From positions 1-50,807 of the forward strand of contig QKHE01000006.1 in NCBI GenBank assembly GCA_003250155.1: DNA of 50,807 bases, written 5' to 3'. The notes beneath the pieces were generated by a model. It worked only from the letters and a program-made list of their open reading frames with translations. It searched no databases and was not told the origin of the DNA. This DNA comes from Chloroflexota bacterium. Its GTDB lineage: Bacteria > Chloroflexota > Limnocylindria > Limnocylindrales > CSP1-4. The first letter of the stretch is position 1; each line of letters opens with the position of its first letter. A program made the translations under genes and the position numbers. This document shows positions 1 to 40,030 of this stretch, one piece after another.

Positions 1-1
1 T

Positions 2-439
2 GGCTGGCAGGCGCCGTTCCCGGTGCCGCACGTCGAGCTCGCGATCGACCCGGGCCGGCTCGGAATCGGCCTGCTGTTCGTCGTCGCGCTCGCGCCGCTG
101 ATCGGGACGCTGCTGTTCACCGCACCGATCTTCCTGCTGCGCAGCAGGACCCGCTGGTGGGTCGCCCTGATCATCGGCTTCGTGCTGTTCAACGTCGCCG
201 TCGGCGGCCTCGCGTTCCTGTGGGCGTACGTCAACTTCGACTGGGTGGCCGGCCTGTTCTGGTTCATCGGCAAGACGTTCGCGCTCGTCTTCGTCTTCGT
301 CTGGCTGCGCGGCACGCTGCCGCGCGTCCGGATCGACCAGCTGATGGGCTTCGCCTGGAAGTGGCTGCTGCCGGTCTCGCTGCTGAACCTGTTCGTCACC
401 GCCGTGGCCGTCATCGTCGTCGACGCGGTGGGGCGCTGA
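2..439 (+). CDS. nuoH: NADH-quinone oxidoreductase subunit H, C-terminal fragment. The 5' end lies left of the window.
   Basis: The frame is open from the window edge. The C-terminal signature [43 protein letters not shown] matches the conserved NuoH/ND1 tail (RxT.PR.R.DQLM..WK.LLP). The stop TGA at 437-439 overlaps the next ATG (ATGA). Confidence 0.9.
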
Positions 440-1197
440 TGAGCTTCCTGTCACAGCTCGTCCCGGGCTTCGGCATTGCCAAGGGCATGACCCTGACGCT
501 GAAGCGCTTCTTCGCGCCCAAGGCGACGATCAAGTACCCCGAGCAGAAGGCCGACGTCGCGGTCCGCTTCCGCGGCCGCCTCCAGCTGCTGTGGGACGAG
601 AACGGCCTGCTGAAGTGCGAGACCTGCTTCCAGTGCGCCCAGGCCTGCCCCATCGAGTGCATCGACATGGGCGGCCTGGATACGAAGGGCCGCTTCCACG
701 TTCACTGGGGCGCGCCCGAAACGTACGGCGAGCGGCGCGAGGAGTCGGCGCTGCGGCGGTCCGGCCGCGTCGTGCCCGATCCCGCGTACGACCACTTCGC
801 GGGCATCGACCTGGCGGCCGTCGACGAGATCCTGGCGCGCCACGACCACGATCCGGCCCGGATGCTGGCGATCTTCGAGGACGTCCAGGCGGCCTACGGC
901 CACCTGCCGGTCGCGGCGCTCAAGCGGATCAGCGAGACCACCGGGGCGTGGTACGCGATGCTGTACGGCACGGCCTCGTACTACCAGCACCTGCGCTTCG
1001 AGCCGCCCGACGCCGAGGGTCAAGCGGCCGCGACGGGCGCCCGCCGACCAGGCGAGGACGCCTACCTCGCGGCGCTCGGCGCCTCGCTCCGGGGCGGCGC
1101 GCCGTCCTCGCCGGACGCGACCGCGGCGGCAAGCTCGGCCGCGAACGGACCCGCGAACACGTCGCGGCCGTCGACGAAACGGCGGTCTGACGCGTGA
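439..1197 (+). CDS. nuoI: Atypical NuoI. It has a NuoI N-terminal half with only one CxxCxxCxxxCP motif, fused to a Cys-less NuoE-like N-terminal helical domain and an Ala/Ser/Pro-rich tail.
   Basis: The ATG at 439 overlaps the nuoH stop. The N-terminus LTLKRFFAPKATIKYPEQKADVAVRFRGRLQLL...CETCFQCAQACPIECI is NuoI-like (motif at 616-651). The second ferredoxin motif is absent. Residues encoded at about 808-1000 (VDEILARHDHDPARMLAIFEDVQAAYGHLPVAALKRISETTGAWYAMLYGTASYYQHLRF) resemble the N-terminal helical part of NuoE. There is no Cys after the first motif region. Confidence 0.8.
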   Translation: MSFLSQLVPGFGIAKGMTLTLKRFFAPKATIKYPEQKADVAVRFRGRLQLLWDENGLLKCETCFQCAQACPIECIDMGGLDTKGRFHVHWGAPETYGERREESALRRSGRVVPDPAYDHFAGIDLAAVDEILARHDHDPARMLAIFEDVQAAYGHLPVAALKRISETTGAWYAMLYGTASYYQHLRFEPPDAEGQAAATGARRPGEDAYLAALGASLRGGAPSSPDATAAASSAANGPANTSRPSTKRRSDA

Positions 1198-2552
1198 CGA
1201 CGTTCCTGACGACCCCGGCCGCGTGGCCGTCGATCCTGCTGGCGCGGCGCGATGCGGCTGACCCGACGGACCTCGCGTCGGCCGTGCGGGCCGGCGCGTT
1301 CGGCGGCCTGACGAAGGCCATGCGGGAGCTCGGGCCGGCGGCCACGATCGGGCTGCTCGAGGAGGCCGGGCTGCGGGGGCGCGGCGGGAGCGGCCACCTG
1401 GCGGCCGAGAAGTGGCGGGCGGCGGCCCGAACCCCGGCCAAGGCACGCTACGTCGTCGCCAACGGCTACGGCGCCGATCCCTCGGTCGCGACGGACCGCG
1501 CGCTGCTCGAGACCGACCCGTACGCGGTCATCGAGGGCGCCGCGATCGCGGCCTTCGCGACCGGCGCGGAGGAGGTCCACATCGCCGTCAGAGCCGGGGC
1601 GACCGAGGCCATCGCGCGCCTCGAGGCGGCGATCGTCGCGGCGCTGGAGGCCGGCTTCATCGGCGACGACGCGCTCGAGAGCGGCAGCCGCATCGAGATC
1701 CTGGTCCGGCCGGTCCAGGGCGCCTACATGCTCGGCGAGGAGACGGTCCTGCTGAAGGCCCTCGAGAGCAAGCGCGGCCAGCCCGAGCAGCGTCCGCCGC
1801 ATCCATCGACGAAGGGCCTCTACGGACGGCCGACCGTGGTCCACAACGTCCAGACCCTCGCGGTGGTGCCGTACATCCTGCGGCACGGCGCGGCGGCGTT
1901 CCGCAAGATCGGCGACCCGGATGCGCCAGGAACGATCCTCGTCGAGGTCCGCGGCCCTGACGGCGCCGGCGTGGCGGAGGTGCCGCTGGGCACGCCGCTG
2001 CGTGACGTCATCGCCCTCGTCGGGGCGCCCGCGCGCGGCCGCAAGGTGAAGGCCGTCGTCATCGGCGGCCCGTCGGGCGGGATCCTGCCGGCGTCGCAGC
2101 TCCGCACGCCGTACAGCTTCGACGGCCTGCGTGCCGCCGGCGCCCACGTCGGCTCGGGCTCGGTGGTCGTCGCCGACGACCGGGCATGCGTCGTCGACCT
2201 GGCGCGGATCCTCACGCGCTACTGCGCCGATGAGGCCTGTGGCAAGACGATCCCGTGCCGAATCGGGCTGCGCCGAATCGCCGAGATCGGTGAGCGCCTG
2301 ACGACCGGCACGTCGCGGGCGGGCGACCTGCAGCTCCTGGAGGACCTCTCGGCCGACGTCGTCGGCTCGGCGCTGTGCGACCACGAGCGACTGGCCACGC
2401 TGCCGCTGATGAGCGGGCTACGATACTTCCGCGCCGAGGTCGACGCGCATCTCGAGCGCGGCGAATGCCCGGCCGGCGTCTGCCGACCGGCGACCCTCGC
2501 CCCGGCCGCCGCCGCCGGTCCCAGCACGCGCGCCTCCAGGGCCCAGGCATGA
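1194..2552 (+). CDS. nuoF: NuoF-family (51 kDa) FMN/NADH-binding subunit homolog with a degenerate N3-cluster motif.
   Basis: The GTG at 1194 overlaps the upstream stop (GTGA). Motifs seen: GLRGRGGSG, GAYMLGEETVLLKALESKRGQPEQRPPHPSTKGLYGRPTVVHNVQTL, and EACGKTIPCRIG where the canonical sequence is ESCGKCTPCREG. Confidence 0.85.
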   Translation: MTTFLTTPAAWPSILLARRDAADPTDLASAVRAGAFGGLTKAMRELGPAATIGLLEEAGLRGRGGSGHLAAEKWRAAARTPAKARYVVANGYGADPSVATDRALLETDPYAVIEGAAIAAFATGAEEVHIAVRAGATEAIARLEAAIVAALEAGFIGDDALESGSRIEILVRPVQGAYMLGEETVLLKALESKRGQPEQRPPHPSTKGLYGRPTVVHNVQTLAVVPYILRHGAAAFRKIGDPDAPGTILVEVRGPDGAGVAEVPLGTPLRDVIALVGAPARGRKVKAVVIGGPSGGILPASQLRTPYSFDGLRAAGAHVGSGSVVVADDRACVVDLARILTRYCADEACGKTIPCRIGLRRIAEIGERLTTGTSRAGDLQLLEDLSADVVGSALCDHERLATLPLMSGLRYFRAEVDAHLERGECPAGVCRPATLAPAAAAGPSTRASRAQA

Positions 2553-5329
2553 CCGACCTGATCACGCGCCCCGACGCCGCCTCCGACGCCGCTGACCCGG
2601 CCGACGCCGCGATCGTGCCGGTCGCCCAGCCCGCGGCGCCGACGGAGCGCCCGGACCGCCCCGCACGCCGCGACCGCCACGTGCGGCCCGATGGCTCGCC
2701 GGAAGCGCGTCCGGACGTCCCGGCCGTCCTGAGCACGGCCGAGCCCGTCGAGGACACGCACGCCGAGCGTCTCCTCACGACGCAGGCGCCGCAGCGGCCG
2801 CTGGCCACGCCGCCGATCCGGATCGAGGTCGACGGCCGGGTCGTCGAGGGCTTCGAGGGCCAGACGATCCTCGAGGTCTGCCGCGACAACGGCATCGAGA
2901 TCCCGACGCTGTGCTACGAGCCGAAGCTGCCCGGCTTCGGCGCCTGCCGGATGTGCGTCGTCGACGTCGAGGGCGAGGAGCACCCGCCGATCAGCTGCTC
3001 GCGGGCCGCCGAGGCCGGCATGAAGGTCCAGACGCAGACCGACGAGGTGCGGCGGCTGCGCCGGACGAACCTCGAGCTGATCTTCTCCGATCACAACGCC
3101 TACTGCCTGCCGCCCTGCCAGTTCAAGTGCCCCAGCCACATCGACATCCCGGGCTTCCTGAAGCAGAACGCGGAGGGCAACTTCCGGGAGTCGACCCGGA
3201 TCTTCAAGCGGACGATCCCGTTCCCGTCCGTCCTCGGCCGGGTCTGCCCGGCCCCGTGCGAGGAGCACTGTCGCCGCGACGAGGTCGACGAGGCGATCGC
3301 GATCCGCGACAGCCACCGCTACGCCGGCGACCAGGTCATCAAGGCGATGCTCGACGAGGACCTGGACCCGCCGGTGCCGTTCGAGGTCCAGGCCAAGACG
3401 GGTCGGCGGGTGGCCGTCATCGGCTCCGGCCCGGCCGGCATGGCCGCCGCCTACTACCTCCTGATCAACGGCCACGACGTGACCGTCCTCGAGCGCGACC
3501 CGGCGCCAGGCGGGATGCTCCGCTACGGCATCCCGCAGTACCGGCTGCCGAAGGTCGAGGTCCTCGAGGCCGAGTACGAGAGCGTCAGCCGCCTCGGCGG
3601 CAAGATCGTCTGCAACCAGGCGCTGGGTCGCGACTTCAGCCTCGACGACCTCCAGTTCCAGGGCTACGACGCGGTCGTCATCGCGATCGGCTGCTACGAC
3701 ACCAACAAGCTCGGCATCCCCGGCGAGGACGCCGCCGAGGTGCTCGACGGCCTCGAGTACCTGCGAACCGCCACGCTCGGCCTGCCGTACCCCGACCACG
3801 CCGGCAAGCGCGTCGTCGTCATCGGCGGCGGCTTCACCTCGATGGACTGCTCGCGGACCTCGATCCGCCAGGGCGCGGCGGAGGTCACGCTCGTCTACCG
3901 CCGCGACATGAAGGACATGCCGGCGGCCAACGAGGTCCACGAGGCGCTCGAGGAGGGCGTCACCGCGATCTTCCAGGCCGGGCCGACGAAGGTCATCACG
4001 GACGAGGCCGGCAACGTCACCGGGGTCGAGTTCATCCGGATGCAGCTGGGCGAGCCCGATGCCTCCGGGCGGCGGCGGCCGCAGCCCGCTCCCGGCACCG
4101 AGTTCGTCGTGCCCTGCGACCGGGTCCTGCTGGCGATCGGCCAGGGTCCCGAGCTCGACTGGGTCGGGCCGGGCTCGACCGGGGTCGGGCCGACGAAGAA
4201 CCGTCGCCTGCAGGCCGACGCGGTGACGTTCGAGACCGGGCGCCCCGGCGTGTTCGGGACCGGCGACGTCCGGATCGGCGCCGCGACGGTGGTCGAGGCG
4301 ATCGCCGAGGGCCGGCGCTGCGCCTACGCCGTCGACGCCTATCTCAAGGGCCGCGACCTGGCCGCGATCAAGACCCGCCAGACCCTGGCCGAGCCGCAGC
4401 CCGAGTTCCTGTCGATCGTGCCGTTCACCGCCGAGGTCAAGGAGCCGCGCTACCGGCTCAAGGCCCTCGACGCGGAGGAACGCCGCCACAGCTACGTGGA
4501 GTACGAGATTCCGTACTCCCGCGGCGAGATCGTCGCCGAGTCGACGCGCTGCCTGCAGTGCACCTGCGAGGCGATCGGCTACTGCGACCTGCGCCGCCTC
4601 GGGATCGAGTACGGCACGACACTCCAGACCCTCGAACCCAGGCACCACGAGGGCGCCGGCTACCGCAGCGTGACCGAGAACCGCTTCACCGGCATCAACC
4701 ACGACTACGTCCGCGACGATTCGCACGCCTTCATCCTGCGCGAGCCGTCGCGCTGCATCGACTGCGGACGCTGCGCCCAGGTCTGCTCGGAGGTCGTCGG
4801 CGCGGCGTGCTACGACTTCATGCGCATCGGCTTCGACACGCTCGTGACGACGCCGCTCGACATGAGCCTCAACGACACGCCGTGCGTGTCCTGCGGCCGC
4901 TGCGCCGAGACCTGCCCGACCGGCGCCCTGATGCCGAAGCCGCGCGTGCTGCAGAAGTACGAGGTCGACGAGAGCCGCTGCATCCTGTGCGGCATCTGCG
5001 TCGACGCATGCCCCTACGACGCGCTGCGTGACGGCGGCGAGTACGAGCTGACCCACGCCAGCCGGGCCGAGCCGATGATCGACCTCATGGCGCTCGCACA
5101 GCTGGATCGCGAGACCGAGATGACGTACGTCCGCAAGGAACGCGACTGGCTCCAGCGCGCGATGGCCGAGGGCCGCTACGTCGATGAGCGGCGGCTGCTG
5201 CCGGTCCTGCCGCCGTCGATGGCGTCGGGCGACGGCGACGGCGCGCCGACCGCGCGCCCGAACGAGGCGCCGTTCGATCCGCCCCGGATCGGGGCTGCGG
5301 GGACGCACCCGCACGCCCACCTGAAGTAG
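2549..5329 (+). CDS. Multidomain Fe-S flavoprotein. Its order is: NuoG/FdhA-type N-terminal [2Fe-2S] domain, GltD-like (glutamate synthase small-subunit family) FAD/NAD(P)H module, several 4Fe-4S motifs, and a NuoI-like C-terminal half. No molybdopterin-type domain is present.
   Basis: The ATG at 2549 overlaps the nuoF-like stop (ATGA). Motifs seen: 2Fe-2S LCYEPKLPGFGACRMCVVDVEGEEHPPISC; GltD-type C..PPC...CPSHIDIPGFL and GRVCPAPCEEHC; FAD site VAVIGSGPAGMAAAYYL; NAD(P)H site VVVIGGGFTSMDCSRT; Fe-S motifs CLQCTCEAIGYC, CIDCGRCAQVC, CVSCGRCAETCPTGAL and CILCGICVDACPYDAL (4979-5014). These are followed by EYELTHASRAEPMIDL, which resembles the NuoI C-terminus. Confidence 0.8.
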   Translation: MTDLITRPDAASDAADPADAAIVPVAQPAAPTERPDRPARRDRHVRPDGSPEARPDVPAVLSTAEPVEDTHAERLLTTQAPQRPLATPPIRIEVDGRVVEGFEGQTILEVCRDNGIEIPTLCYEPKLPGFGACRMCVVDVEGEEHPPISCSRAAEAGMKVQTQTDEVRRLRRTNLELIFSDHNAYCLPPCQFKCPSHIDIPGFLKQNAEGNFRESTRIFKRTIPFPSVLGRVCPAPCEEHCRRDEVDEAIAIRDSHRYAGDQVIKAMLDEDLDPPVPFEVQAKTGRRVAVIGSGPAGMAAAYYLLINGHDVTVLERDPAPGGMLRYGIPQYRLPKVEVLEAEYESVSRLGGKIVCNQALGRDFSLDDLQFQGYDAVVIAIGCYDTNKLGIPGEDAAEVLDGLEYLRTATLGLPYPDHAGKRVVVIGGGFTSMDCSRTSIRQGAAEVTLVYRRDMKDMPAANEVHEALEEGVTAIFQAGPTKVITDEAGNVTGVEFIRMQLGEPDASGRRRPQPAPGTEFVVPCDRVLLAIGQGPELDWVGPGSTGVGPTKNRRLQADAVTFETGRPGVFGTGDVRIGAATVVEAIAEGRRCAYAVDAYLKGRDLAAIKTRQTLAEPQPEFLSIVPFTAEVKEPRYRLKALDAEERRHSYVEYEIPYSRGEIVAESTRCLQCTCEAIGYCDLRRLGIEYGTTLQTLEPRHHEGAGYRSVTENRFTGINHDYVRDDSHAFILREPSRCIDCGRCAQVCSEVVGAACYDFMRIGFDTLVTTPLDMSLNDTPCVSCGRCAETCPTGALMPKPRVLQKYEVDESRCILCGICVDACPYDALRDGGEYELTHASRAEPMIDLMALAQLDRETEMTYVRKERDWLQRAMAEGRYVDERRLLPVLPPSMASGDGDGAPTARPNEAPFDPPRIGAAGTHPHAHLK

Positions 5330-5332
5330 CCG

Positions 5333-5935
5333 ATGCGCGCCTGGCTGTACCTGATCGGCGGGCTGGTCGCCTTCGGCGTCGTCGCGACGCCGGGGCTGCT
5401 GGTGCTGCTGTTCTTCGGCGGCAGCAGCGACGACGTCATGCTCGCCTCGCTCGCGACGCTGATGCTGGTGTCGGGGATCGCCGTCGTCACGATGCGCGAC
5501 ATCATCCGCTGCGGCCTGGCGATGATCGTCTGCTTCCTCGCGTTGGCCGGGATCTACGTCATCCTCCGCGCGCCGATCGTCGCTGCGGCCCAGGTGATCA
5601 TCTACATCGGCGCGATCAGCGTGCTGGTCCTCTTCGCGATCATGCTGACCCAGGACAAGATCGCGCCCGCCCGCCTCGTGTTCCAGACGCAGGCCCTGCC
5701 GGCCGCGATCGCCGCGATCGTCCTCGCGGTGCTCATCGCGCTGGCCGGGGTCGGCACCGACTGGCCGGGCGCGGTCGATCGACTCAGCATCGCGACCGTC
5801 GCCGTCGCGAACCAGCTGTTCGACGAGTACGTGCTGCCGTTCGAGGTCGTCAGCGTCCTCCTCCTGGCGGCGGTCGTCGGCGGCGTCTTCCTGGCCAAGC
5901 GCGAGCCGACTCGCCGCGACGAGGACTCGGTCTGA
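5333..5935 (+). CDS. nuoJ: NADH-quinone oxidoreductase subunit J
   Basis: Polytopic membrane protein with the NuoJ-like core AAAQVIIYIGAISVLVLFAIML. It sits between the nuoI-position genes and nuoK and starts 4 nt after the upstream stop. Confidence 0.9.
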   Translation: MRAWLYLIGGLVAFGVVATPGLLVLLFFGGSSDDVMLASLATLMLVSGIAVVTMRDIIRCGLAMIVCFLALAGIYVILRAPIVAAAQVIIYIGAISVLVLFAIMLTQDKIAPARLVFQTQALPAAIAAIVLAVLIALAGVGTDWPGAVDRLSIATVAVANQLFDEYVLPFEVVSVLLLAAVVGGVFLAKREPTRRDEDSV

Positions 5936-6252
5936 TGGGCCTGGCCGACAACATCGACATCTACCTGGCCCTCGCCGGGGCGCTCTTCGCGATCGGGACG
6001 TTCGGCTTCCTCGCCCGGCGCAACGCGATCTCGATGCTGATGTCGATCGAGCTCATGCTCAATGCCGTCAACCTCGCGATCGTCACGTTCGGGGCGTTCG
6101 AGCCGGCCCTCCAGGGGGACGGCCCGATCATCGCGTTGATGGTCATGGCCGTCGCGGCCGCCGAGGCGACCGTCGGGCTGGCGATCGTGATCGCGATCTT
6201 CCGCAACCGCCGCACGCCGCTTGTCGACGAGTACGACGCGATGCGCCGATGA
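5935..6252 (+). CDS. nuoK: NADH-quinone oxidoreductase subunit K
   Basis: A 105-aa protein with three TM segments. It carries the signature MLMSIELMLNAVNLAIV...AAAEATVGLAIVIAIFR. Its start overlaps the nuoJ stop (ATGA). Confidence 0.95.
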   Translation: MGLADNIDIYLALAGALFAIGTFGFLARRNAISMLMSIELMLNAVNLAIVTFGAFEPALQGDGPIIALMVMAVAAAEATVGLAIVIAIFRNRRTPLVDEYDAMRR

Positions 6253-6277
6253 GCCGCCCACGCATGAGCCACCGCGC

Positions 6278-8272
6278 ATGAGTCACGACCTGCTCATCCC
6301 GCTGATCATCGCGTTCCCGCTCGCGGGCTTCCTGATCACGGCCGTCATCGGCCGGCGCCTGGGCGCGAACGCGTTCTGGATCCCGGTCGGGGCGGTCGTG
6401 CTGTCGTGGCTCGTCGCAATGCTCGTCGTCGTCGCCGCCCTGACGGGCGCCGAGCCGTACGGCGAGCACGGCTACGGCGTCACGCTGTGGACCTGGATCC
6501 CGGCCGGCGCGCTCGACATCACGGCCGGCTTCTTCGTCGACAGCCTGACCGCGGCGCTGCTCATCGTCGTGACGACGATCGGCATGCTCGTGCATGTCTA
6601 TTCGATCGGCTACATGGCCCACGACCCCGGGCGCTGGCGCTTCTTCGCCTACCTCAACCTGTTCATGGTCTCGATGCTGCTGCTCGTGCTGGCCGACAGC
6701 TGGCTCGTGCTGTTCGTGGCCTGGGAGCTGGTCGGGCTGTGCAGCTACCTGCTGATCGGCTTCTGGTACCGCAAGCGCAGCGCGGCCGAGGCGTCGAAGA
6801 AGGCGTTCATCGTGAACCGCGTCGGCGACGTCGGCTTCATCCTCGGCCTGATCGCGATCTTCGTGAACACCGGCACGCTGAACATCCGCGACTCGATCGA
6901 CGTCCTGACCTCGGAGACGCTCGTCGCGTTCCCGATCCCGGTCGCGCTCGTCGCGCTGCTGCTGTTCGCGGGCGCCGTCGGCAAGAGCGCCCAGTTCCCG
7001 CTCCACGTCTGGCTGCCCGACGCGATGGAGGGCCCGACGCCGGTCTCTGCCCTGATCCACGCGGCGACGATGGTCAACGCCGGCGTCTACATGGTCGCCC
7101 GGGCCAACCCGATCTTCGCCTCGGCGCCGGACGTCATGGTCGTCGTCGCCGGGATCGGCATCTTCACCGCGATCCTGGCCGCCTCGATCGCGATGACCCA
7201 GACCGACATCAAACGGGTCCTCGCCTACTCGACGCTCAGCCAGCTCGGCTACATGTTCGCCTCGCTCGGGGTCGGCGCCTTCACGGCCGCGATCTTCCAC
7301 CTCATGACCCACGGCTTCTTCAAGGGCCTGCTGTTCCTCGGCTCGGGATCGGTCATCCACGCCGTCCACGAGGAGCAGGACATGCGCCGGATGGGCGGCC
7401 TGGCGAAGAAGATCCCGCACACCTACTGGACGATGCTGATCGGCGCGGTCGCCATCTCCGGGATCCCGCCGCTGGCCGGCTTCTTCAGCAAGGACGAGAT
7501 CCTCGGCGAAGCCTTCAAGCTCGGCTTCACGTGGGTCTGGGCGATCGGCATCGTCGTCGCGGTCATGACCGCGTTCTACATGTTCCGGCTCATCGGCCTG
7601 ACGTTCTGGGGCGAGAGCCGCGTCGATCCGGCGGTCGAGCCGAAGATCCACGAGTCGCCGCGGACGATGACCGTCCCGCTGTGGCTGCTGGCGATCCCGT
7701 CGCTCGTGCTCGGGGTCCTGCTGACGTGGCCCGGCCCGCCGCTCGGGCCGCTGCTCGGCCTGGATGGCACCGGCCCGCTCCACACCTGGCTCCACGGCGT
7801 GTTCGAGCCGGGCCTCGAGCTGCTCGGCCACCACGAATCCGAGTTTGCGCTGCTGGGCATCGACGGCGTCCTGATCGCGGTCAGCGTGGCCGTCGCGCTG
7901 GCCGGCATGCTGCTGGCGTGGCGCCTGTTCGGGGTGGAGATCGGGCCGTTCCGCGGCGCCCAGCGGCCCGAGCAGGTCAAGGCCCTCACGGCCCGCGTGC
8001 CCGGCCTCTACCGCGCCTCGGTCAACAAGTGGTGGTTCGACGACCTCAACCACGTGATCTTCGTCGTCATCGGCGGCTTCAGCGCCCGCGCCGCGGCGTG
8101 GTTCGACAGCCACGTCGTCGACGGCATCGTCAACGGCATCGGTACCGTGACCCGCCGCTCGGGCGGCGGCCTGTCGCAGATCCAGACCGGCCGCGTCCAG
8201 AACTACGCGCTCGGCATCGCGCTCGGGCTGATCGTCATGGCCGGCTCGTACCTCGTGATCGTGGGCCGCTGA
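6278..8272 (+). CDS. nuoL: NADH-quinone oxidoreductase subunit L
   Basis: Antiporter-like subunit with WELVGLCSYLLIGFWY, GKSAQFPLHVWLPDAMEGPTPVSALIHAATMV, and the long C-terminal lateral-helix region. I chose the start at MSHDLL (6278), downstream of the nuoK stop. The ORF track starts at 6221, which would overlap nuoK. Confidence 0.93.
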   Translation: MSHDLLIPLIIAFPLAGFLITAVIGRRLGANAFWIPVGAVVLSWLVAMLVVVAALTGAEPYGEHGYGVTLWTWIPAGALDITAGFFVDSLTAALLIVVTTIGMLVHVYSIGYMAHDPGRWRFFAYLNLFMVSMLLLVLADSWLVLFVAWELVGLCSYLLIGFWYRKRSAAEASKKAFIVNRVGDVGFILGLIAIFVNTGTLNIRDSIDVLTSETLVAFPIPVALVALLLFAGAVGKSAQFPLHVWLPDAMEGPTPVSALIHAATMVNAGVYMVARANPIFASAPDVMVVVAGIGIFTAILAASIAMTQTDIKRVLAYSTLSQLGYMFASLGVGAFTAAIFHLMTHGFFKGLLFLGSGSVIHAVHEEQDMRRMGGLAKKIPHTYWTMLIGAVAISGIPPLAGFFSKDEILGEAFKLGFTWVWAIGIVVAVMTAFYMFRLIGLTFWGESRVDPAVEPKIHESPRTMTVPLWLLAIPSLVLGVLLTWPGPPLGPLLGLDGTGPLHTWLHGVFEPGLELLGHHESEFALLGIDGVLIAVSVAVALAGMLLAWRLFGVEIGPFRGAQRPEQVKALTARVPGLYRASVNKWWFDDLNHVIFVVIGGFSARAAAWFDSHVVDGIVNGIGTVTRRSGGGLSQIQTGRVQNYALGIALGLIVMAGSYLVIVGR

Positions 8273-9927
8273 TGGCCGATCTGCCGCTGCTGTCGATCGT
8301 GACCTTCGCGCCGCTCGTCGGCGCGCTGGTCATCGCGTTCGCCCCGGCCCGCTGGGCGCGGCTGCTGGCGCTGGCAACCGCGCTGGCGACGTGGCTCGTG
8401 TCGCTCTACGCCGTGACCCGCTTCGACCCCGCGCTCAGCGGCTTCCAGCTCGTCGAGGAAGTGTCGTGGATCCCGCTGTTCGGGATCGAGTACAAGCTCG
8501 GGACCGACGGGCTGGCGCTGGTCCTCGTGGTCCTGACGACGACCCTGACCTGGATCAGCATCCTGGCGAGCTTCAAGCCGATCCAGACGCGGATCAAGGA
8601 GTACATGGTCTCGTTCCTGATCCTCGAGGTCGGGATGGTCGGCGTGTTCCTCGCCCTCGACACCTTCCTGTTCTACATCTTCTGGGAGGTCGTCCTCGTC
8701 CCGATGTACCTGATCATCGGCATCTGGGGCGGCGCGAACCGGATCTACGCGACGATCAAGTTCGTCCTGTACACGCTCGTCGGGTCGCTGCTGATGCTGG
8801 TCGCGATCCTGGCCACCGCGTTCGCCTTCCAGGAGGCCAACGGCGGCAGCTGGGTCGGCGCATTCGACTTCGAGGTCCTCCGGGCGCACGCGGCGACAGC
8901 GGGCTTCGGCGACGCCCTGCAGATGCTGGCTTTCGCGGCCTTCTTCCTGGCCTTCGCGATCAAGATCCCGATGGTCCCGTTCCACACCTGGCTGCCGGAC
9001 GCCCACGTCGAGGCGCCGACCGCGGGCTCGGTGATCCTGGCCGGGATCCTGCTCAAGCTCGGCGGCTACGGCTTCATCCGCTACAACCTGGCGCTGTACC
9101 CCGACGCTGCCCAGGCGTACGCACCCTTGATCGTGCTCCTGAGCGTCATCGCGATCATCTACGGCGCGATCGTGGCGATGGTCCAGCCCGACCTCAAGAA
9201 GCTCGTCGCCTACTCGTCCGTCAGCCACATGGGCTTCGTGACCCTCGGCATCTTCATCTTCCAGCCGCAGGCGATGGACGGCGCGATCCTGCAGATGGTC
9301 AACCACGGCCTGATCACGGGCGCGCTGTTCCTGCTCGTCGGCGTGATCTACGAGCGGACCCACGATCGGACGATCGCCAAGATGGGCGGCCTGGCCGGCC
9401 TGACGCCGGTCTATGCCGCGGTCTTCGGCTTCTTCGTCTTCGCCTCGGCCGGGCTGCCCGGCCTGTCGGGCTTCGTCGGCGAGTTCCTGGCGCTGCTCGG
9501 CACGTTCGTCGTCAACCCGTGGGCCGCCGGCGTCGCCGCGCTGGTCATGATCCTCGGCGCGGCGTACCTGCTGTGGATGTTCCAGCGAGTGGTCTTCGGT
9601 GAGCCATCGGAGTTCCTGCTGGGCATCCGCTCGCACCTCTCCGACATGACGCCGACCGAGATCCTGACGCTCGCGCCGCTGGGCGCGCTCGTGGTCGTCT
9701 TCGGGCTCTTCCCCGGGATCCTCCTCGACCTCATCGGAGGCAGCGTGACGAGCGCCCTCGACGCCGTCGGGCACGGCAGCGCGATCAGCGTCGACCCGCT
9801 GGTTCCGGCGGTCGGGCTCGGCATCGTCGTCGCGGCGGTCATCGTGCAGCTGGCGAACGCGCTGTTCGGCGGCGGCGGGGCCGGCGAGGACCAGCCCGGC
9901 GAAGCGGCCCCCGAGGGCGCGTCATGA
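8272..9927 (+). CDS. nuoM: NADH-quinone oxidoreductase subunit M
   Basis: The start MADLPLLSIV overlaps the nuoL stop (ATGA at 8270-8274). Motifs seen: FYIFWEVVLVPMYLIIGIWGG, KIPMVPFHTWLPDAHVEAPTAGSVILAGILLKLGGYG. Confidence 0.95.
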   Translation: MADLPLLSIVTFAPLVGALVIAFAPARWARLLALATALATWLVSLYAVTRFDPALSGFQLVEEVSWIPLFGIEYKLGTDGLALVLVVLTTTLTWISILASFKPIQTRIKEYMVSFLILEVGMVGVFLALDTFLFYIFWEVVLVPMYLIIGIWGGANRIYATIKFVLYTLVGSLLMLVAILATAFAFQEANGGSWVGAFDFEVLRAHAATAGFGDALQMLAFAAFFLAFAIKIPMVPFHTWLPDAHVEAPTAGSVILAGILLKLGGYGFIRYNLALYPDAAQAYAPLIVLLSVIAIIYGAIVAMVQPDLKKLVAYSSVSHMGFVTLGIFIFQPQAMDGAILQMVNHGLITGALFLLVGVIYERTHDRTIAKMGGLAGLTPVYAAVFGFFVFASAGLPGLSGFVGEFLALLGTFVVNPWAAGVAALVMILGAAYLLWMFQRVVFGEPSEFLLGIRSHLSDMTPTEILTLAPLGALVVVFGLFPGILLDLIGGSVTSALDAVGHGSAISVDPLVPAVGLGIVVAAVIVQLANALFGGGGAGEDQPGEAAPEGAS

Positions 9928-11390
9928 GCGACCTCGCGACGATCGCCCCGTTCGCGCTGGCGGTCGGCCTCGCGCTCCTCGTCCTGGCCGTCGACATCGC
10001 CTGGCCGGGCCGGCGGGGAGCCGTTCTCGGCACGACGCTCGTGGGCCTGCTGATGGTCGCGGCCGCGACGCTCGACGTCGGCTCGGGCGGCGCGCGCATC
10101 ACGGCTTTCGACGGGGCCTACGTCGTCGATCCGCTGACGACGTTCCTGGACCTGCTGTTCATCGGCATCGTGGCCTTCACGATCGTGTTCGCGCCCGACT
10201 ACCTCGAGCCGCGCGGCCTGCCGCTCGGCGAGTTCGCGGTCGTGCTGCTGTTCGCGATGACCGGCGCGATGCTCATCTCGGCGTCGGCCGACCTGCTGGT
10301 GCTGTTCATCGCCCTCGAGCTGATGGTCCTGCCCGGCTACATGCTGGCCGGCTACCACAAGACCGACGGCTACTCGACCGAGGGCGCGATCAAGTACTTC
10401 CTGCTCGGCTCGTTCAGCTCGGCCATCTTCCTGTTCGGGCTGGCGTTCGTGTGGGGCTTGCTCGGGACGACGCGCATCGAGGACATCCAGGCGGCGCTGA
10501 CCGGCGGGGCCGCCAGCTCGCCGGCGCTCGTGATGGGCCTCGCGTTCCTGACGACCGGCGTGGCCTTCAAGATCGCCGCCGTGCCGTTCCATTACTGGAC
10601 GCCCGACGCGTACCAGGGCTCGCCGACGCCGGTCACCGGCTACCTGTCGGTCGGCCCGAAGGTCGGCGCGTTCGCGCTCGTCCTGCGGCTCTTCGTCGAG
10701 GCGCTCGGCCCGCTCAGCGCCGACTGGGTCCAGGTCGTGATCGTCCTGGCGGTGCTCACGATGACGCTGGGCAACCTCGTCGCGCTGACCCAGACCAACG
10801 TCAAGCGGATGCTCGCCTACTCCTCGATCGCCCACACCGGCTACATGCTCGTCGGCCTGGCGGCGTTCGCCGTCGGCCGGCTGGAGGGCCTCGAGGGCCT
10901 GCTGTACTACGGCGCCGCGTATGCGGTCATGAACCTCGGCGCGTTCGCCGTCGTCGGCGCGATCCAGCGCCGGGCGGGCGTGACCTCGGGGCTGGCGACC
11001 TTCGCCGGGCTCGGCCGGCGCGAGCCGTGGCTGGCGGTCCTGATGACGCTGTTCCTGCTGTCGCTGACCGGCATCCCGCCGACGGCCGGCTTCTTCGCCA
11101 AGGCCTACGTCATCCTCGCCGCGGTCCAGGCCAGCCAGGCCGGCTCGGCGGCGCTCGGCGTGCTGGCCGTGGTCGCCGTCCTCAACGCCGCCGCGGCCGC
11201 CTTCTACTACCTCCGCGTCGTCGTCTACATGTTCATGCGCGAGCCCGATTCGGAGCAGCCGGTCCTGGCCCACGGGCGGCTGCTGTGGGGCGGCCTCGTC
11301 GCGGCGAGCGTGCTGACCGTGATCCTGGGCCTGCTGCCGGGTCCGCTCCTCGACGTCGTCGGCCAGGCCGCCCGCGCGATCGGCAGCTGA
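9924..11390 (+). CDS. nuoN: NADH-quinone oxidoreductase subunit N
   Basis: Its start overlaps the nuoM stop. Motifs seen: LELMVLPGYMLAGY, FKIAAVPFHYWTPDAYQGSPTPVTGYLSVGPK, MLAYSSIAHTGYML. Confidence 0.93.
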   Translation: MSDLATIAPFALAVGLALLVLAVDIAWPGRRGAVLGTTLVGLLMVAAATLDVGSGGARITAFDGAYVVDPLTTFLDLLFIGIVAFTIVFAPDYLEPRGLPLGEFAVVLLFAMTGAMLISASADLLVLFIALELMVLPGYMLAGYHKTDGYSTEGAIKYFLLGSFSSAIFLFGLAFVWGLLGTTRIEDIQAALTGGAASSPALVMGLAFLTTGVAFKIAAVPFHYWTPDAYQGSPTPVTGYLSVGPKVGAFALVLRLFVEALGPLSADWVQVVIVLAVLTMTLGNLVALTQTNVKRMLAYSSIAHTGYMLVGLAAFAVGRLEGLEGLLYYGAAYAVMNLGAFAVVGAIQRRAGVTSGLATFAGLGRREPWLAVLMTLFLLSLTGIPPTAGFFAKAYVILAAVQASQAGSAALGVLAVVAVLNAAAAAFYYLRVVVYMFMREPDSEQPVLAHGRLLWGGLVAASVLTVILGLLPGPLLDVVGQAARAIGS

Positions 11391-11433
11391 CCGGGGACCT
11401 ATCGGACCCCGTCGACCGCCTGCACCGCGGCCG

Positions 11434-12147
11434 ATGCTAGGCTTCCGCGCCGTGGACACCGTGAGCAACCGGATTCGGCTTCGTCTCGTGCCGGCCCTGC
11501 TGACGGCCAGCGGCGTGATCCTGCTCGCGAGCGGCCTCCTGTCGTACACGACCGCGATCGAGGCGCCGCCGCCGCCACTGTCGCTGGCGAGCTTCGAGCC
11601 GCTGCCGACGATCCCGACGACCGTCGTCCTCCCGGGCGCCGGCGCGACCGCCGAGCCGACGTTCCCGGCCGATCGCGTGGTCACCCGCGTCGTCGTCCGG
11701 CGGCTCGGCATCGACCTGCCGATCATCCTCCAGCAGGACGACGTCCATGGCGCCTTCCCGCTGTGCGACGTCGCGCTCTACCTGCCGTTCATGGGCCAGC
11801 CCGGCCAGGGTCGGGCGACGTACATCTATGCCCACGCCCGGACCGGGATGTTCCTGCCGCTGCTGACCGAATCACGCCGCAACAACGGCGCCCGGATGAT
11901 CGGCTGGACGGTCGAGGTCTACACCAGCGACAACTGGCGCTTCCTGTACAGGATCGTCGAGGTCCGTCGCCACATCAGGAGCCTCGACGCGGCCAACAGG
12001 GCGGACTGGGAGTCGGTCTGGCTGCAGACCTCGGAGGGTCCGTACGAGTCGTCGACCAAGCTCCAGGTCGTCGCCAACTTCGACTCGGCCGCGCCCGCCG
12101 ACCCGGCCGACGCCCACCCCAAGGCCAAGCCCCGCGTCTGCGTCTAA
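11434..12147 (+). CDS. Membrane-anchored sortase-like protein in which Ser replaces the canonical catalytic Cys.
   Basis: It has an N-terminal TM segment (LVPALLTASGVILLASGLL). The blocks follow sortase order: VVRRLGIDLPIIL (substrate-groove strand), ATYIYAHARTGMFLPL (His block), GWTVEVYTSDNWRFLYRIVEV, then VWLQTSEG where sortases have LxLxTC, then KLQVVANF. This call is by eye only. Confidence 0.45.
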   Translation: MLGFRAVDTVSNRIRLRLVPALLTASGVILLASGLLSYTTAIEAPPPPLSLASFEPLPTIPTTVVLPGAGATAEPTFPADRVVTRVVVRRLGIDLPIILQQDDVHGAFPLCDVALYLPFMGQPGQGRATYIYAHARTGMFLPLLTESRRNNGARMIGWTVEVYTSDNWRFLYRIVEVRRHIRSLDAANRADWESVWLQTSEGPYESSTKLQVVANFDSAAPADPADAHPKAKPRVCV

Positions 12148-12161
12148 GCCGGGCGATCGCC

Positions 12162-13817
12162 CTACGCGGCCGTGGCGGGCCGTTCCGCGGTTCGTCGCAG
12201 GGCCAGGGCCGCGGGGATCGCGAGCGCCAGCACGGCGGCCGCGACGAGGAAGATGCCGACCAGGATCCGGGCGGCCTCGCCCGAGGCCCACGCCTCGAGC
12301 GCCTGCACGACGAGGCCGTCCTCGAGCGGTCGGTCCTGCAGCGACGGCGGGATGAACGACTTGTACGCGTCCGGGGTCGCGTAGACGGCCGCCCAGAGGC
12401 GGTCGATGACCGTCGAGCCGAAGGCCGTCAGGACGGCCAGGCCGATGGCCATGCCGATCATTCGGGCGACGGTCACCGTCGCCGAGGCAACGCCGAACGC
12501 CGTCCGGCCGAGGGCCTCGACCGCGGCCGTCGAGCGTGGTGTCACCGTCAGCCCGAAGCCGGCCCCGAAGGCGGCGAGGACGACCGCGACCTCGGCCAGG
12601 CTGGTCGACGGCGTCCAGGTGGCCATCGCGGCCAGTCCCGCGATCGCGAGGCCCAGCCCGACGACCGTCGTCAGCCGCAGGCCGACGGCGCGCAGCACGA
12701 GGCCCGACGCGAGCGCCCCGGCGGCGGTGGCCGCGGCGAGCGACCCGAGCGCGATCCGCTGCACGTCCGGCCCGCCGTACAGGACTCGGTCGACGAACAC
12801 GGCGCCGCCGATGATCGCGGTCGCGAAGCCGTAGCCGGTCAGGAGCGAGACGAGCGCCGCGGACGCGAAGCCGGGGGCCCGGAACCAGCCCGGGTCGATG
12901 AACGGCTCGGCACGCCGGGCGCCGACGACCAGCGCGACGACGATCGCGACCGCGGCGGCGAGGCCGAAGCCGGCGACGAGCGCCGGCCAGTCGAGGCCGA
13001 GGGCCGGGGCCGGGTCGGCGCCGGCGATCGTCAGCCCGACGAGGAGCAGCCCGAGCCCGATCGAGAAGGCGCTCGCCCCGGCGAGATCCAGGCGTCCACC
13101 GCGGCGGGCAGTGTCCCAGTCCGTCGTCGCGGCCCAGCCGATCGACAGCGCGATGATCCCGATCGGGACGTTGACGTAGAAGACGTAGCGCCACGGCGCC
13201 CCGAGGGCATCGGTCAGCGTCGCGGCCAGCTCGCGCTCCACGCGCAGCGAGCCGAGGAACGCGTCCGGGTGGATGGCCTGCATGATCCACGCCCCGGCGA
13301 AGGGGCCGGCGGCCATGCCGAGGAACGTCAGGGCCCCGATCACGCCGAGCGCGCGGGGCCGGGCCGCGCCATCGAACAGATGCGACGCCGCCGCGGTCGC
13401 GACCGGCACCAGCGCGCCGCCGCCGAGCGCCTGGACCAGCCGCGCGGCGATGAGCTCCTCGAGGGTCTGGGCCCGGCCGGCGAGGGCGGACCCGATCACG
13501 AACACGACGAGCGCACCCAGGAACAGCCGCCGGACGCCCCACCGATCGGCCAGCCGCCCGGCCAGCGGCATCGTCACGATCGACACGAGCAGGTAGCCAT
13601 TGACGATCCAGGATGCGGTCCGGAGCTGCCGCCAGTCGGCGAGGTCGGTCAGGATCGCCGGCAGCGCGACGGCCGTGATCATGAGCTCCAGACCGGCAAG
13701 GAAGACCCCGGTGCCCATGACGGCGAGCAGGACGATCGAGGCGCCGCGTGCCACCAAGGGAGTGTAGGCACGAGTTGCCGGGCCGGACCCGGGGCCTGCA
13801 ATTGAGCCCTTCATCAA
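12162..13817 (-). CDS. MFS transporter, DHA2 (14-TMS, EmrB/QacA-like) drug:H+ antiporter family.
   Basis: N-terminal signature FLAGLELMITAVALPAILTDL...SWIVNGYLLVSIVTMPLAGRLADRWGVRRLFL. It is about 550 aa with many TM segments and lies downstream of tetR on the same strand. Confidence 0.9.
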   Translation of the reverse strand: MMKGSIAGPGSGPATRAYTPLVARGASIVLLAVMGTGVFLAGLELMITAVALPAILTDLADWRQLRTASWIVNGYLLVSIVTMPLAGRLADRWGVRRLFLGALVVFVIGSALAGRAQTLEELIAARLVQALGGGALVPVATAAASHLFDGAARPRALGVIGALTFLGMAAGPFAGAWIMQAIHPDAFLGSLRVERELAATLTDALGAPWRYVFYVNVPIGIIALSIGWAATTDWDTARRGGRLDLAGASAFSIGLGLLLVGLTIAGADPAPALGLDWPALVAGFGLAAAVAIVVALVVGARRAEPFIDPGWFRAPGFASAALVSLLTGYGFATAIIGGAVFVDRVLYGGPDVQRIALGSLAAATAAGALASGLVLRAVGLRLTTVVGLGLAIAGLAAMATWTPSTSLAEVAVVLAAFGAGFGLTVTPRSTAAVEALGRTAFGVASATVTVARMIGMAIGLAVLTAFGSTVIDRLWAAVYATPDAYKSFIPPSLQDRPLEDGLVVQALEAWASGEAARILVGIFLVAAAVLALAIPAALALRRTAERPATAA

Positions 13818-19172: not shown

Positions 19173-20134
19173 TGGGCGAACGCGGGCCACGATCGTCGTG
19201 GGTCCGGCGGCTGCGCGCCCGTGGTGTCGTGGCCGGCGCCTGGCTGCTGTCGCGCCTGCCCGAGCGACCGCTCCTCGCCCTGGCGGGGATCGTCGGTGAC
19301 GCCTGGTGCCGCCTCGCTCCCGAGCGGCGCCGGCTGGCGCGCCGGAACCTCGCCCGGATCGCGGCCTGGATGGACGAGACGGGACGGGGCGACCCCGCGC
19401 GTCGGGCGGCGGCCCATGACGGAGCGGCGCTGACCCGGCTCGTCCGCGAGGCGTTCCGGAACTCGGCCCGCTACTACCTCCGCCTCGCGCGCGCCGGAAC
19501 GCTGTCGCCGGCCGAGGTTGAGCGGCGCTTCGTCGTCGATACCCCCGAGCTGCTCGCCGAGATCCTGGCGGACCCGAAGGGAGCGCTGTTCGTCGGCCTC
19601 CATCTCGGCTGGTACGAGCTCGCGGCGCTGTACTTCATCCGCAAGACCGGCCGGCGCGGCGTCGTCCCGACGGAGATCGTGGCCGACCCGGAGCTCCAGG
19701 CCTTCCTCGTCGCCTCGCGCGAGCGGATGGGGGTCCGCCTCGTCGACGTCGCCTCGGCCCGCCGCGAGCTGGCCGCCGCACTTCGCCGCGGCGAGACGGT
19801 CGGGTTGGTCGCCGATCGCGACGTGAGCGGCAGCGGCATCGTGACAACCCTGTTCGGGCATCCGGCTCGCCTGCCGGCCGGGCCGGCGCTGCTGGCGCTC
19901 GAGACCGGTGCGGTGCCACGCGTCTTCGGCACCTGGGTCGCCGCCGACGGCCTCAACCACGCGCGCGGCCAGACCGTGCCGCTGCCCGAGGGCGAGACGC
20001 GACGCGCGCGCGTCGAGGCGTGGCTGGAGGCGGAAGCGCGAGCGTTCGAGGAATACGTTGCCGAGGCGCCGGAGCAGTGGCAGGCCGTCTTCCACCCGAT
20101 CTGGGACGACCTCGCCGAGGGGCTCGCGGCATGA
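19172..20134 (+). CDS. LpxL/HtrB-family lipid acyltransferase, copy 2 (paralog of 18147-19172).
   Basis: The ATG at 19172 overlaps the upstream stop (ATGA). Motifs seen: H-x4-E (GLHLGWYELAA), VGLVADRDVSGSG...LFGHPARLPAGPALLALETGA. Confidence 0.75.
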   Translation: MGERGPRSSWVRRLRARGVVAGAWLLSRLPERPLLALAGIVGDAWCRLAPERRRLARRNLARIAAWMDETGRGDPARRAAAHDGAALTRLVREAFRNSARYYLRLARAGTLSPAEVERRFVVDTPELLAEILADPKGALFVGLHLGWYELAALYFIRKTGRRGVVPTEIVADPELQAFLVASRERMGVRLVDVASARRELAAALRRGETVGLVADRDVSGSGIVTTLFGHPARLPAGPALLALETGAVPRVFGTWVAADGLNHARGQTVPLPEGETRRARVEAWLEAEARAFEEYVAEAPEQWQAVFHPIWDDLAEGLAA

Positions 20135-34959: not shown

Positions 34960-35325
34960 TTATCGCATGGGTCTCTGATCGGACTGCGGATGGCGCCGCA
35001 CCGTGACGCGGAGCCCCGAGATCCTGCGACCTGCGGGTGCCGCACCGAACGCGGCGGCCAGCGCGGAGGCGTTGAGCCGGAGCTCCTGCGCCACGATCGG
35101 AGCGTCCGCCTCGACGACCAGCAGGTCGCCCTCGCCGCCAGCCTCGATCCCGATCGCCCGGCAGGCGCCGTGCGCCGCCGGCGCGAGCTCGGCGACGATC
35201 GCATCGAATGTCGCCGCGGCGCGCGCTCGGCGGAGCTCGTCCTCGAGGCCGAGCCGGGCCGCGGCGCCGGGAATGAGCTCGCCGATGCGGGACATCGGGC
35301 GCCGGCGGCGCGGTTCGTCGCTCAC
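34960..35325 (-). CDS. DUF721 / DciA-like protein, the conserved small gene that follows recF.
   Basis: Its position immediately downstream of recF is typical. The sequence (LEDELRRARAAATFDAIV...LLVVEADAPIVAQELRLNASALAAAF) looks DUF721-like. A GTG at 35325 overlaps the recF stop (GTGA). An ATG at 35295 is the alternative start. Confidence 0.65.
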   Translation of the reverse strand: MSDEPRRRRPMSRIGELIPGAAARLGLEDELRRARAAATFDAIVAELAPAAHGACRAIGIEAGGEGDLLVVEADAPIVAQELRLNASALAAAFGAAPAGRRISGLRVTVRRHPQSDQRPMR

Positions 35326-36509: not shown

Positions 36510-36540
36510 CCCGTCGTGCCGTCCCGCCGCTGCGCCGCCG

Positions 36541-39465: not shown

Positions 39466-39640
39466 GCTCGATCTGGGTTCTCCGCTGCCGGTTGGGGGCT
39501 GGGTTGGACTCGGCGGGATCGAAATTCGGTCTCGGTCCGACGGCTTCGGCTGGCTCGGGACGGACGAGCGGGGACCCGTCGCCTGGGTCGTCGGGTGGCG
39601 AAAGGTAGCACCGCGGGGAGGGCCCCGCAAGGTGAATCCG

Positions 39641-39661
39641 CGATACTCCCCAGGAGTATCG
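39641..39661. promoter_or_regulatory. Perfect 9-3-9 palindrome in the dnaA/rpmH divergent intergenic region; function unknown.
   Basis: CGATACTCC-CCA-GGAGTATCG, read directly from the sequence. It lies 176 nt upstream of the dnaA start on the dnaA side. Confidence 0.4.
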
Positions 39662-39711
39662 GCCGCCCGCTCCCGTTCGGCGGCGCAGGGGCAGCTGGGC
39701 GACGGCCACGT

Positions 39712-39741
39712 TTGACGCGCGATCGCGCGCGGACCTATGAT
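39712..39741 (+). promoter_or_regulatory. Candidate sigma-70-type promoter for the rpmH operon.
   Basis: TTGACG (39712-39717), an 18-nt spacer, then TATGAT (39736-39741), about 120 nt upstream of the rpmH ATG. The spacer contains the palindrome GCGCGATCGCGC. Confidence 0.35.
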
Positions 39742-39998: not shown

Positions 39999-40030
39999 CG
40001 ACCGGACGCGGCCCCCGGCCGCGGCTGGTG

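Follow-up and report, generated by a model that had tools for sequence, protein, structure and literature searches.

A predicted complex I of Limnocylindria with an Nfn/Stn-type NADPH module encoded inside a split nuoI gene

Bifurcating NfnABC and StnABC are the closest solved relatives of the system considered here. In these enzymes, electrons pass from flavin adenine dinucleotide (FAD) through the clusters A7, A6, A3, A2 and A1 to B1 and flavin mononucleotide (FMN), and the A2-A4-A5 branch is a dead-end remnant (PMC11829005, PMC10482914). The Bfu family's bifurcation site is the flavobicluster B1-FMN-C1, and B3/B4 form the low-potential exit to ferredoxin (PMC11829005, PMC9304861). Moreover, 'Nuo-Bfu' complexes have been predicted in Geobacter, Deferribacteres, Planctomycetes and Nitrospirae (Schut et al. 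2022, PMC9304861). The subject of the present analysis is a gene for a protein of 926 amino acids (aa), hereafter the target, together with the nuo operon around it, in a stretch of 50,807 nucleotides (the window) from a soil Chloroflexota bacterium (assembly GCA_003250155.1, contig QKHE01000006.1). The gene order, read from the source contig L001 (JGI 3300027987, on which the target open reading frame (ORF) is called identically) and from its relatives L002 and L003, is nuoA-B-C-D-H-[I(N)::E(N)]-F'-[G(N)::GltD::Fd::I(C)]-J-K-L-M-N, in which the first fusion gene is called IE, F' is a NuoF-like flavoprotein and the second fusion gene is the target. That is to say, the operon is predicted to encode a 13-gene complex I in which a pared-down module of the Nfn/Stn type (BfuABC-derived), lying inside a split nuoI, takes the place of the canonical NuoEFG head. 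To our knowledge, there is no natural complex I with NADPH as its physiological donor.

First of all, the target had been annotated initially as a protein with a [2Fe-2S] N-terminus, a GltD-like FAD/NAD(P)H module, later 4Fe-4S motifs and no molybdopterin domain, and Pfam bears this description out. Fer2_4 (aa 89–164, E 2e-20), Fer4_20 (aa 186–265, 8e-17) and Pyr_redox_2 (aa 287–588, 7e-30) are followed by a weak Fer4_Nqo3 match (aa 729–794) and a Fer4/Fer4_7 dicluster (aa 772–827), and no molybdopterin-oxidoreductase domain is found in the target by Pfam. The combination of Fer2, GltD and Fe-S domains without a molybdopterin domain is already a curated family (NCBIfam PRK12814). The FAD motif GSGPAGMAAA and the NADPH motif GGGFTSMDCS are both present, and behind the NADPH loop stands LVYRRDMKDMPA, a 'YRR' signature of the NADPH type, which also occurs in StnC. 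Degeneracy of the Rossmann motifs, named at the outset as a possible objection, is not seen: the AlphaFold2 (AF2) model, built on a 44-sequence alignment spanning both phyla discussed below, is confident over aa 85–610, and since this confident fold superposes on NfnI-L (5jca_L; template-modelling score 0.78, root-mean-square deviation 3.3 Å), the Rossmann pair is not degenerate. The best superposition of the model is on NfnA/StnC. The likeness to the Nfn and Bfu families proposed by the initial annotation proves to be homology, as phmmer against PDB sequences gives 9bov_A (NfnA of Caldicellulosiruptor NfnABC) with E 2e-162 over query residues 90–821, and further matches to 9n5u_A (archaeal NfnA) and 8oh5_C (StnC of Sporomusa ovata); the identity to NfnA/StnC-type relatives is 38–46% over about 730 residues. 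The homology stops at about aa 821, and the C-terminal half of NuoI occupies the place of the A5 motif. From homology to StnC/NfnA, the four-Cys motif C668–C679 probably corresponds to cluster A3. The A2/A4 ferredoxin-like domain is the most conserved stretch of the target, with an identity of 0.97, while aa 1–85 and 891–926 are poorly conserved tails. In addition, one ligand position of the FAD-proximal [4Fe-4S] cluster is taken by His256 (window 3314–3316); the residue there is Lys in StnC/NfnA, Glu in NfnB and an invariant His in both lineages described here, a third variant.

When 1.84 billion cluster representatives are searched, the full-length proteins that come next after the target's own family are Stn/Nfn/Fdh-type proteins of 1000–1400 aa with at most 46% identity. 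Six shorter representatives of about 810–850 aa (P0154, P0207, P0226, P0135, P0162 and P0220) were considered as molybdopterin-less relatives and rejected: all of them end in ...DHCARL, which indicates GltD-containing formate dehydrogenases whose predicted genes are truncated at the selenocysteine UGA. One exception among the representatives is P0137 (816 aa, 43% identity), which bears the same NuoI C-half as the target.

The NuoI subunit is encoded in two pieces. In phmmer against PDB sequences, aa 13–77 of IE match the first half of NuoI/TYKY chains (E ~1e-10), and target aa ~798–852 (KYEVDESRCILCGICVDACPYDAL...) match the second half, at chain positions ~93–149 (E ~1e-11). The NCBIfam NuoI models match IE at model positions 1–62 only, which on TIGR01971 amounts to 51 bits for the N-half alone. 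When the two halves are spliced in silico, they match TIGR01971 in one stretch over model positions 1–116 of 121, with 102 bits (cut-off 113); the sequence content of NuoI is thus present, though split. A canonical NuoI has both C-x2-C-x2-C-x3-CP motifs on one polypeptide, and here the two motifs lie on two fusion proteins. All eight NuoI Cys are invariant and both halves are under strong purifying selection, the Cys of the N-half being kept in Limnocylindria as well as in Thermoleophilia. It appears that a redox cassette of three genes was inserted in frame into nuoI, at the loop that separates its two cluster motifs. No separate nuoI exists in the operons of L001–L003 or in any related operon examined.

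In order to describe the distribution, one genome per GTDB species was scanned, and at least 572 stretches were confirmed. The best 80 of these at least 572 stretches all belong to Chloroflexota or Ca. Limnocylindrales-type metagenome-assembled genomes (MAGs), with 80–91% identity. By tblastn, the gene order is identical in all of the approximately 70 related loci with enough flanking sequence, all of which are from Limnocylindria-type Chloroflexota MAGs. The arrangement as such is kept in hundreds of species. Within the operon the target has the highest identity (81–91%), against 59–85% for F' and 60–81% for IE. All 29 Cys ligands of the target and His182, His197 and His256 are invariant in 82 Limnocylindria sequences, and likewise in 44 sequences from both phyla. 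The ratio of nonsynonymous to synonymous substitution rates (dN/dS) of the target domains ranges from 0.05 to 0.27, that is, strong purifying selection: it is 0.05 for the A2/A4 ferredoxin domain, 0.09 for the NuoI C-half, 0.11 for Fer4_20 and 0.18 for the FAD/NADPH domain.

All sequences of the family derive from MAGs, and there is no cultured representative among the named matches. This source, and the fact that the relatives of the module are soluble, could favour the explanation that the genes encode a soluble Stn-like enzyme apart from the membrane complex, or that the nuoI split is an artefact of assembly or frameshift. Such an explanation is scarcely credible. The same split and order are met with in more than 70 independent contigs of two phyla, from many studies and assemblers, and a misassembly or frameshift origin was rejected on this ground; moreover, none of these operons has an intact nuoI, the two NuoI halves are strongly constrained with their eight Cys unchanged, and the Fdh-like domain that mediates tetramerisation of Stn is missing. 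The description of two flavin/nicotinamide sites feeding complex I, given by the initial annotation, is a fair one, and the three genes lie inside a complete nuo operon in every related locus.

The two partners of the target are both reduced. In IE, aa 123–190 match only the N-terminal helical domain of NuoE/NfnC/StnA, the Pfam 2Fe-2S_thioredx match covers only model positions 1–63 of 145, and the thioredoxin-like (Trx-like) [2Fe-2S] domain with its Cys ligands is absent according to Pfam and PDB phmmer; the C-terminal tail is disordered. In NfnABC the corresponding NuoE-like N-terminal domain is embedded between NfnA and NfnB (PMC11829005). Few parts of the operon are as constrained as the linker behind the NuoI N-half (GLDTKGRFHVHWGAPETYGERREESALRRSGR), which presumably serves as an interface and to which nothing in the Thermoleophilia proteins corresponds. 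As for F', the adjacent NuoF-like FMN/NADH subunit of the initial annotation, the gene is real, with Pfam matches to Complex1_51K and NADH_4Fe-4S, while its FMN/NADH function is uncertain and its nearest kin are the Bfu-B subunits rather than the NuoF of complex I: the best PDB matches are StnB (E 1e-98), HydB and NfnB, and on TIGR01959 (NuoF) it reaches 336 bits against a cut-off of 559. Only the core is aligned, residues ~110–526 of the Bfu-B chains (StnB has 584 residues), and Pfam finds neither Fer4 nor Trx domains in F', so that the N-terminal and C-terminal cluster domains of BfuB are missing. The motifs were read from 75 members of the F' family. In 75/75 the B1/N3 motif is CGK[T/S]IPC instead of the canonical CGKCxPC, the second Cys being Thr/Ser; the remaining three N3 Cys are invariant, the last of them within an invariant LCDHERL, and a candidate substitute, Cys344, is present in only 59/75. 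This pattern suggests that the N3/B1 site (aa 344–358, 394–400) may hold a [3Fe-4S] cluster or a fourth ligand other than Cys (Asp/His/Ser). An invariant NGYGADP stands where NADEGDPG is canonical, and GRGGAG[FY]PT..KW, Y-x-x-GEET, RGQP.QRPP and PTVV.NVQT are kept. The NGYGADP of F', the lack of Cys ligands in IE and the nuoI split with the module inside it had been overlooked by the initial annotation.

A sister lineage is found in Thermoleophilia. The relatives of P0137 are Thermoleophilia/Actinobacteria MAG proteins of 808–880 aa with 60–88% identity, and four Thermoleophilia loci have the same operon with a split nuoI; the Thermoleophilia MAG loci recorded are L084 (3466–14432), L085, L086 (2565–17336), L087 and L088. 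The Fe-S ligands of the target, His256 and the NuoI C-half are common to Thermoleophilia and Limnocylindria. In these loci the first fusion protein joins the NuoI N-half to a complete NuoE with the four-Cys [2Fe-2S] motif. Its neighbour, the F protein, is a full BfuB of 630–642 aa with an N-terminal Trx-like domain, a C-terminal 2x[4Fe-4S] and canonical FMN and N3 motifs. The Thermoleophilia complex could, as far as these motifs go, be a genuine Bfu-type complex I with an NADPH site in addition. In the subclade of P0137, P0273 and P0276 the NADPH loop is decayed (GDGFAA..., without YRR) and BfuB is intact, and the remaining aligned Thermoleophilia sequences keep GGGFTAMD...YRR; to judge by these motifs, the subclade mirrors, in reverse, what is seen in Limnocylindria.

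The reading that we favour, and regard as probable on balance, is that the Limnocylindria complex pumps protons while passing electrons from NADPH, and probably from NADH as well, to menaquinone, with dual input or with NADPH input. It can be supposed that the two NuoI halves come together in a single 2x[4Fe-4S] fold, by which the three polypeptides are held fast on the Q-module. NADPH would reduce the FAD of the GltD-like domain, and single electrons would then run from FAD through A7 (His256-ligated), A6, A3, A2 and A4 to the NuoI clusters, from where they would reach N2 in NuoB and then menaquinone, and this flow would drive the proton pump. Since the NuoI C-half motif begins 21 residues past the last A4 ligand, the simplest wire exits A4 into NuoI, so that the A2-A4 branch, a dead-end remnant in StnC/NfnA, would serve as the exit here. 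F' probably binds FMN and oxidises NADH, which would give a second input through B1 and A1 to A2; this second input is less certain because the site of F' is remodelled. Through the fusions, the NuoI fold would hold G by a direct link and F' by way of the NuoE anchor domain, and this tethering would replace the interface normally given by the C-terminal domain of NuoG.

Several points weigh against this reading. The Fe-S third of the target (aa 614–926) has low confidence in AF2, with a predicted local distance difference test score (pLDDT) below 50, and the spliced NuoI as a single-sequence AF2 model reaches a pLDDT of only 34 and is uninformative on the pairing of the halves. The docking of A4 to NuoI is a geometry without precedent, canonical complex I exiting via N5 (the A3 position). 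The non-canonical NGYGADP and CGK[T/S]IPC, at positions that are otherwise invariant, are the reason for the uncertainty about the FMN/NADH function of F'. Lastly, if both sites were active, NADPH and NADH would be short-circuited unless the flow is gated.

The state of F' leads to a second explanation, according to which NADPH is the sole donor, NADH oxidation has been lost, and F' with the NuoE N-terminal domain is only a scaffold or nucleotide sensor. F' is indeed the least conserved gene of the operon when set against the target (mean column conservation 0.65), no member retains D94, E95 or the second N3 Cys, and C1, B2–B5 and the extra domains are lost; furthermore, the converse loss in the Thermoleophilia subclade suggests that the two inputs are interchangeable. 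On the other side, the four retained motifs of F' and three of its four N3 Cys are all invariant, its dN/dS of 0.30 is similar to that of the core subunit NuoJ (0.41), and the substitute motifs are themselves invariant, which points to selection for a modified function and not to decay. We take the loss of NADH oxidation to be unlikely, and dual input, with NADPH as the firmer of the two donors, remains the preferred reading.

Bifurcation or confurcation of the Bfu type, as put forward speculatively by the initial annotation, finds no support in Limnocylindria, because C1 and B2–B5 are lost, one B1 Cys is replaced in every F' sequence and each flavin has one Fe-S exit; neither a ferredoxin branch nor flavin-based bifurcation would be expected in this lineage. 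A related explanation, also part of the speculative reading of the initial annotation, is that of an energy-converting transhydrogenase within complex I, in which the electrons of NADH from the remodelled F' flavin would be split between menaquinone (exergonic, by way of the split NuoI) and NADP+ (endergonic, at the GltD-like FAD), or in which the reverse confurcation would take place; as another possibility, the proton-motive force would drive reverse flow to make NADPH. It draws on the kinship with the bifurcating enzymes NfnABC and StnABC, on the convergence of two flavin/nicotinamide sites and a high-potential third exit on cluster A2, and on the complete Bfu core of the sister lineage. 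Against it, B3 and B4 are absent along with C1, B1 is one Cys short, and with a single Fe-S exit per flavin the branch point is an Fe-S cluster rather than a flavin; the FAD of StnC is reported to be non-bifurcating (PMC10482914), and the operons of L001–L003 have no gene for an NfnS-like partner. Both forms, the quinone-linked bifurcating one and the one coupled to the proton-motive force, are very improbable. If a transhydrogenase were built in, the respiratory pump itself would set the NADPH/NADH balance of the cell, and Thermoleophilia, with the full Bfu core, would have a four-substrate machine (NADH, NADPH, ferredoxin and quinone).

The features of the operon within the window, the G+C content of which is about 72%, are collected in Table 1. 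The target ATG overlaps the F' stop codon (ATGA at 2549–2552), and the junctions between the operon genes overlap or almost abut, as in a translationally coupled nuo operon; no terminator-like site is found across window 1–12300. NuoA–D, H and J–N, which make up the membrane and Q-module core, are ordinary Nuo proteins, all ten being matched by Pfam and NCBIfam, and NuoB, D, H, L, M and N score above curated cut-offs.

Table 1. Positions of the nuo operon genes and of the domains of the two fusion proteins in the window
Feature	Position	Strand	Remarks
nuoH 3' end, clipped at window start	1..439	+	ORF G+C at third codon positions (GC3) 0.98; corresponds to L001 4325-5677, PF00146 / NuoH equivalog
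IE, fusion gene NuoI(N-half)::NuoE(N-terminal domain), 252 aa	439..1197	+	
NuoI first half	439..678	+	motif C-x2-C-x2-C-x3-CP at aa 61-72
Linker after NuoI N-half, 35 aa	673..777	+	mean conservation 0.89, dN/dS 0.075
NuoE/BfuC N-terminal helical domain, putative anchor to F'	808..1011	+	Pfam + PDB phmmer
F', trimmed BfuB/NuoF-like flavoprotein core, 452 aa	1194..2552	+	
Target gene, 926 aa	2549..5329	+	disordered tail, [2Fe-2S], GltD/NfnL module, A3, A2/A4 ferredoxin domain, NuoI C-half
Fer2_4 [2Fe-2S] domain (A1/N1b equivalent)	2813..3040	+	Cys122, 133, 136, 150
GltD/NfnL-type module	3104..4312	+	two [4Fe-4S] (Cys186/190/194, Cys233/237/241, His256), FAD Rossmann, NADPH Rossmann with YRR
Four-Cys motif C668-x2-C-x-C-x5-C679, A3-type, after GltD insertion	4550..4585	+	invariant in 82 + 44 sequences
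2x[4Fe-4S] ferredoxin-like domain (A2/A4)	4733..4939	+	Cys736/739/742/746, Cys779/782/785/789
NuoI second half	4940..5104	+	KYEVDESRC811-x2-C-x2-C-x3-C821-PYDAL...; invariant in both lineages
nuoJ	5333..5935	+	
nuoK	5935..6252	+	
nuoL	6278..8272	+	
nuoM	8272..9927	+	
nuoN	9924..11390	+	

Some other features of the operon and its surroundings were recorded. A Methyltransf_28 gene (NDUFAF7-like complex I assembly methyltransferase) lies immediately 5' of nuoA, at 72–1304 in L001 and 1795–3003 in L002. NuoB (L001 1781–2542) and NuoD (L001 3087–4328) have N-terminal extensions of about 90 and 50 aa, respectively, and NuoH (L001 4325–5677) is long, with 450 aa and a profile match in two stretches; these extra parts may be interfaces for the unusual head. 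Directly 3' of nuoN there is an ORF of 237 aa (11434–12147) without a Pfam match, and in L002 a gene of similar size stands in a similar place (19301–19981), also with no recorded Pfam match, the likeness being one of size and position only. Further away, an ORF of about 1800 aa (22155–27548, minus strand) has PMT-type (protein O-mannosyltransferase-like) domains confined to its C-terminal third, and near it are a recF/SMC-like gene (35322–36563, minus strand) and dnaA (38059–40290, minus strand), by which the nuo operon would lie about 27 kb from what is probably the region of the replication origin.

If the favoured reading holds, Limnocylindria and Thermoleophilia, which are abundant and largely uncultured bacteria of soil and freshwater, would feed NADPH straight into a proton pump. 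A conserved machine would have been rebuilt in an unusual way, with two fusion proteins that must co-fold round a shared ferredoxin domain, and the A2-A4 branch, deemed vestigial in the Stn/Nfn enzymes, would gain a function. Moreover, the series from the full Bfu core of Thermoleophilia to the stripped one of Limnocylindria lets one ask which parts bifurcation needs.

Compared with known systems, the locus shares with NfnABC/StnABC (PDB 9bov, 9n5u, 8oh5) the arrangement of the three genes as C(E-like)-B(F-like)-A(G-like) and a BfuA with an N-terminal [2Fe-2S], an inserted GltD/NfnL domain for FAD and NADPH (two [4Fe-4S]) and then A3, A2 and A4. The differences are that an inactive Fdh-like C-terminal domain and A5 follow there and a NuoI half follows here, that the BfuC [2Fe-2S], the terminal cluster domains of BfuB and one B1 Cys are lost here, and that those enzymes are soluble tetramers, whereas these genes are embedded in a nuo operon. 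In StnC the A7 ligand is Lys170, which is strictly conserved (PMC10482914), instead of a His256 invariant in 82 + 44 sequences, and Cys114 of StnC corresponds to Ile200. In the Bfu family, BfuB begins with an additional Trx-like domain (B2/B5 or Zn) and ends with an additional 2x[4Fe-4S] (B3/B4, ferredoxin site); both are absent here and present in Thermoleophilia. The FNR-like small subunit of NfnAB/NfnSL (FAD, [2Fe-2S]), the second exit from the bifurcating FAD, has no gene in the operons examined.

With canonical complex I (Thermus thermophilus Nqo1–14), the system has in common NuoA–D, H and J–N, the sequence features of NuoI, a NuoF-like head and the N-terminal [2Fe-2S] of NuoG. Unlike there, nuoI is split in two fusion genes with the EFG-like genes inside it between nuoH and nuoJ, N1a, the four-Cys N3 and the molybdopterin-like domain of NuoG are not present, an extra FAD/NADPH site is added, and the entry into NuoI is presumably via the A4-type cluster and not N5. 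The Nuo-Bfu complexes are alike in that a Bfu-type module replaces NuoEFG in the middle of a nuo operon and menaquinone is proposed as the third substrate; they differ in having a full BfuBC core, a BfuA without the GltD/NADPH domain, 14 separate subunits and an intact NuoI, confurcation of NADH and ferredoxin has been proposed for them, and Limnocylindria and Actinomycetota are outside their clades (PMC9304861).

In the Mbx-like operons (Degli Esposti 2015, PMC4758237; NCBIfam PRK13984), a GltD-type NADP(H) domain is likewise covalently linked to a NuoI-like 2x[4Fe-4S] element, in a membrane enzyme that resembles complex I. However, the NuoI-like dicluster there is intact, N-terminal and on one polypeptide, there are no NuoE/F/G-like parts, and the enzyme, which has a GltD-related flavoprotein in place of NuoI and is of the Mbx/Mbh-type lineage, is thought to reduce NADP+ (PMC4758237). 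Neither a nuo operon with a GltD/Nfn-type module nor a nuoI that is split was found described in the full-text literature, in which subscription journals are thinly covered, so that this is not conclusive; a heliorhodopsin preprint that mentions Ellin6529 together with complex I is unrelated to the split-nuoI arrangement. Fpo with FpoF/F420H2 and cyanobacterial NDH-1 with ferredoxin also join a conserved 11-subunit core to a swapped input module (PMC3144371); these have other donor modules, and in neither is NuoI split or a GltD domain that binds NADPH present. In summary, in relation to the complexes I with exchanged inputs known so far, what would be new in the predicted complex is a split core subunit together with an NADPH site.

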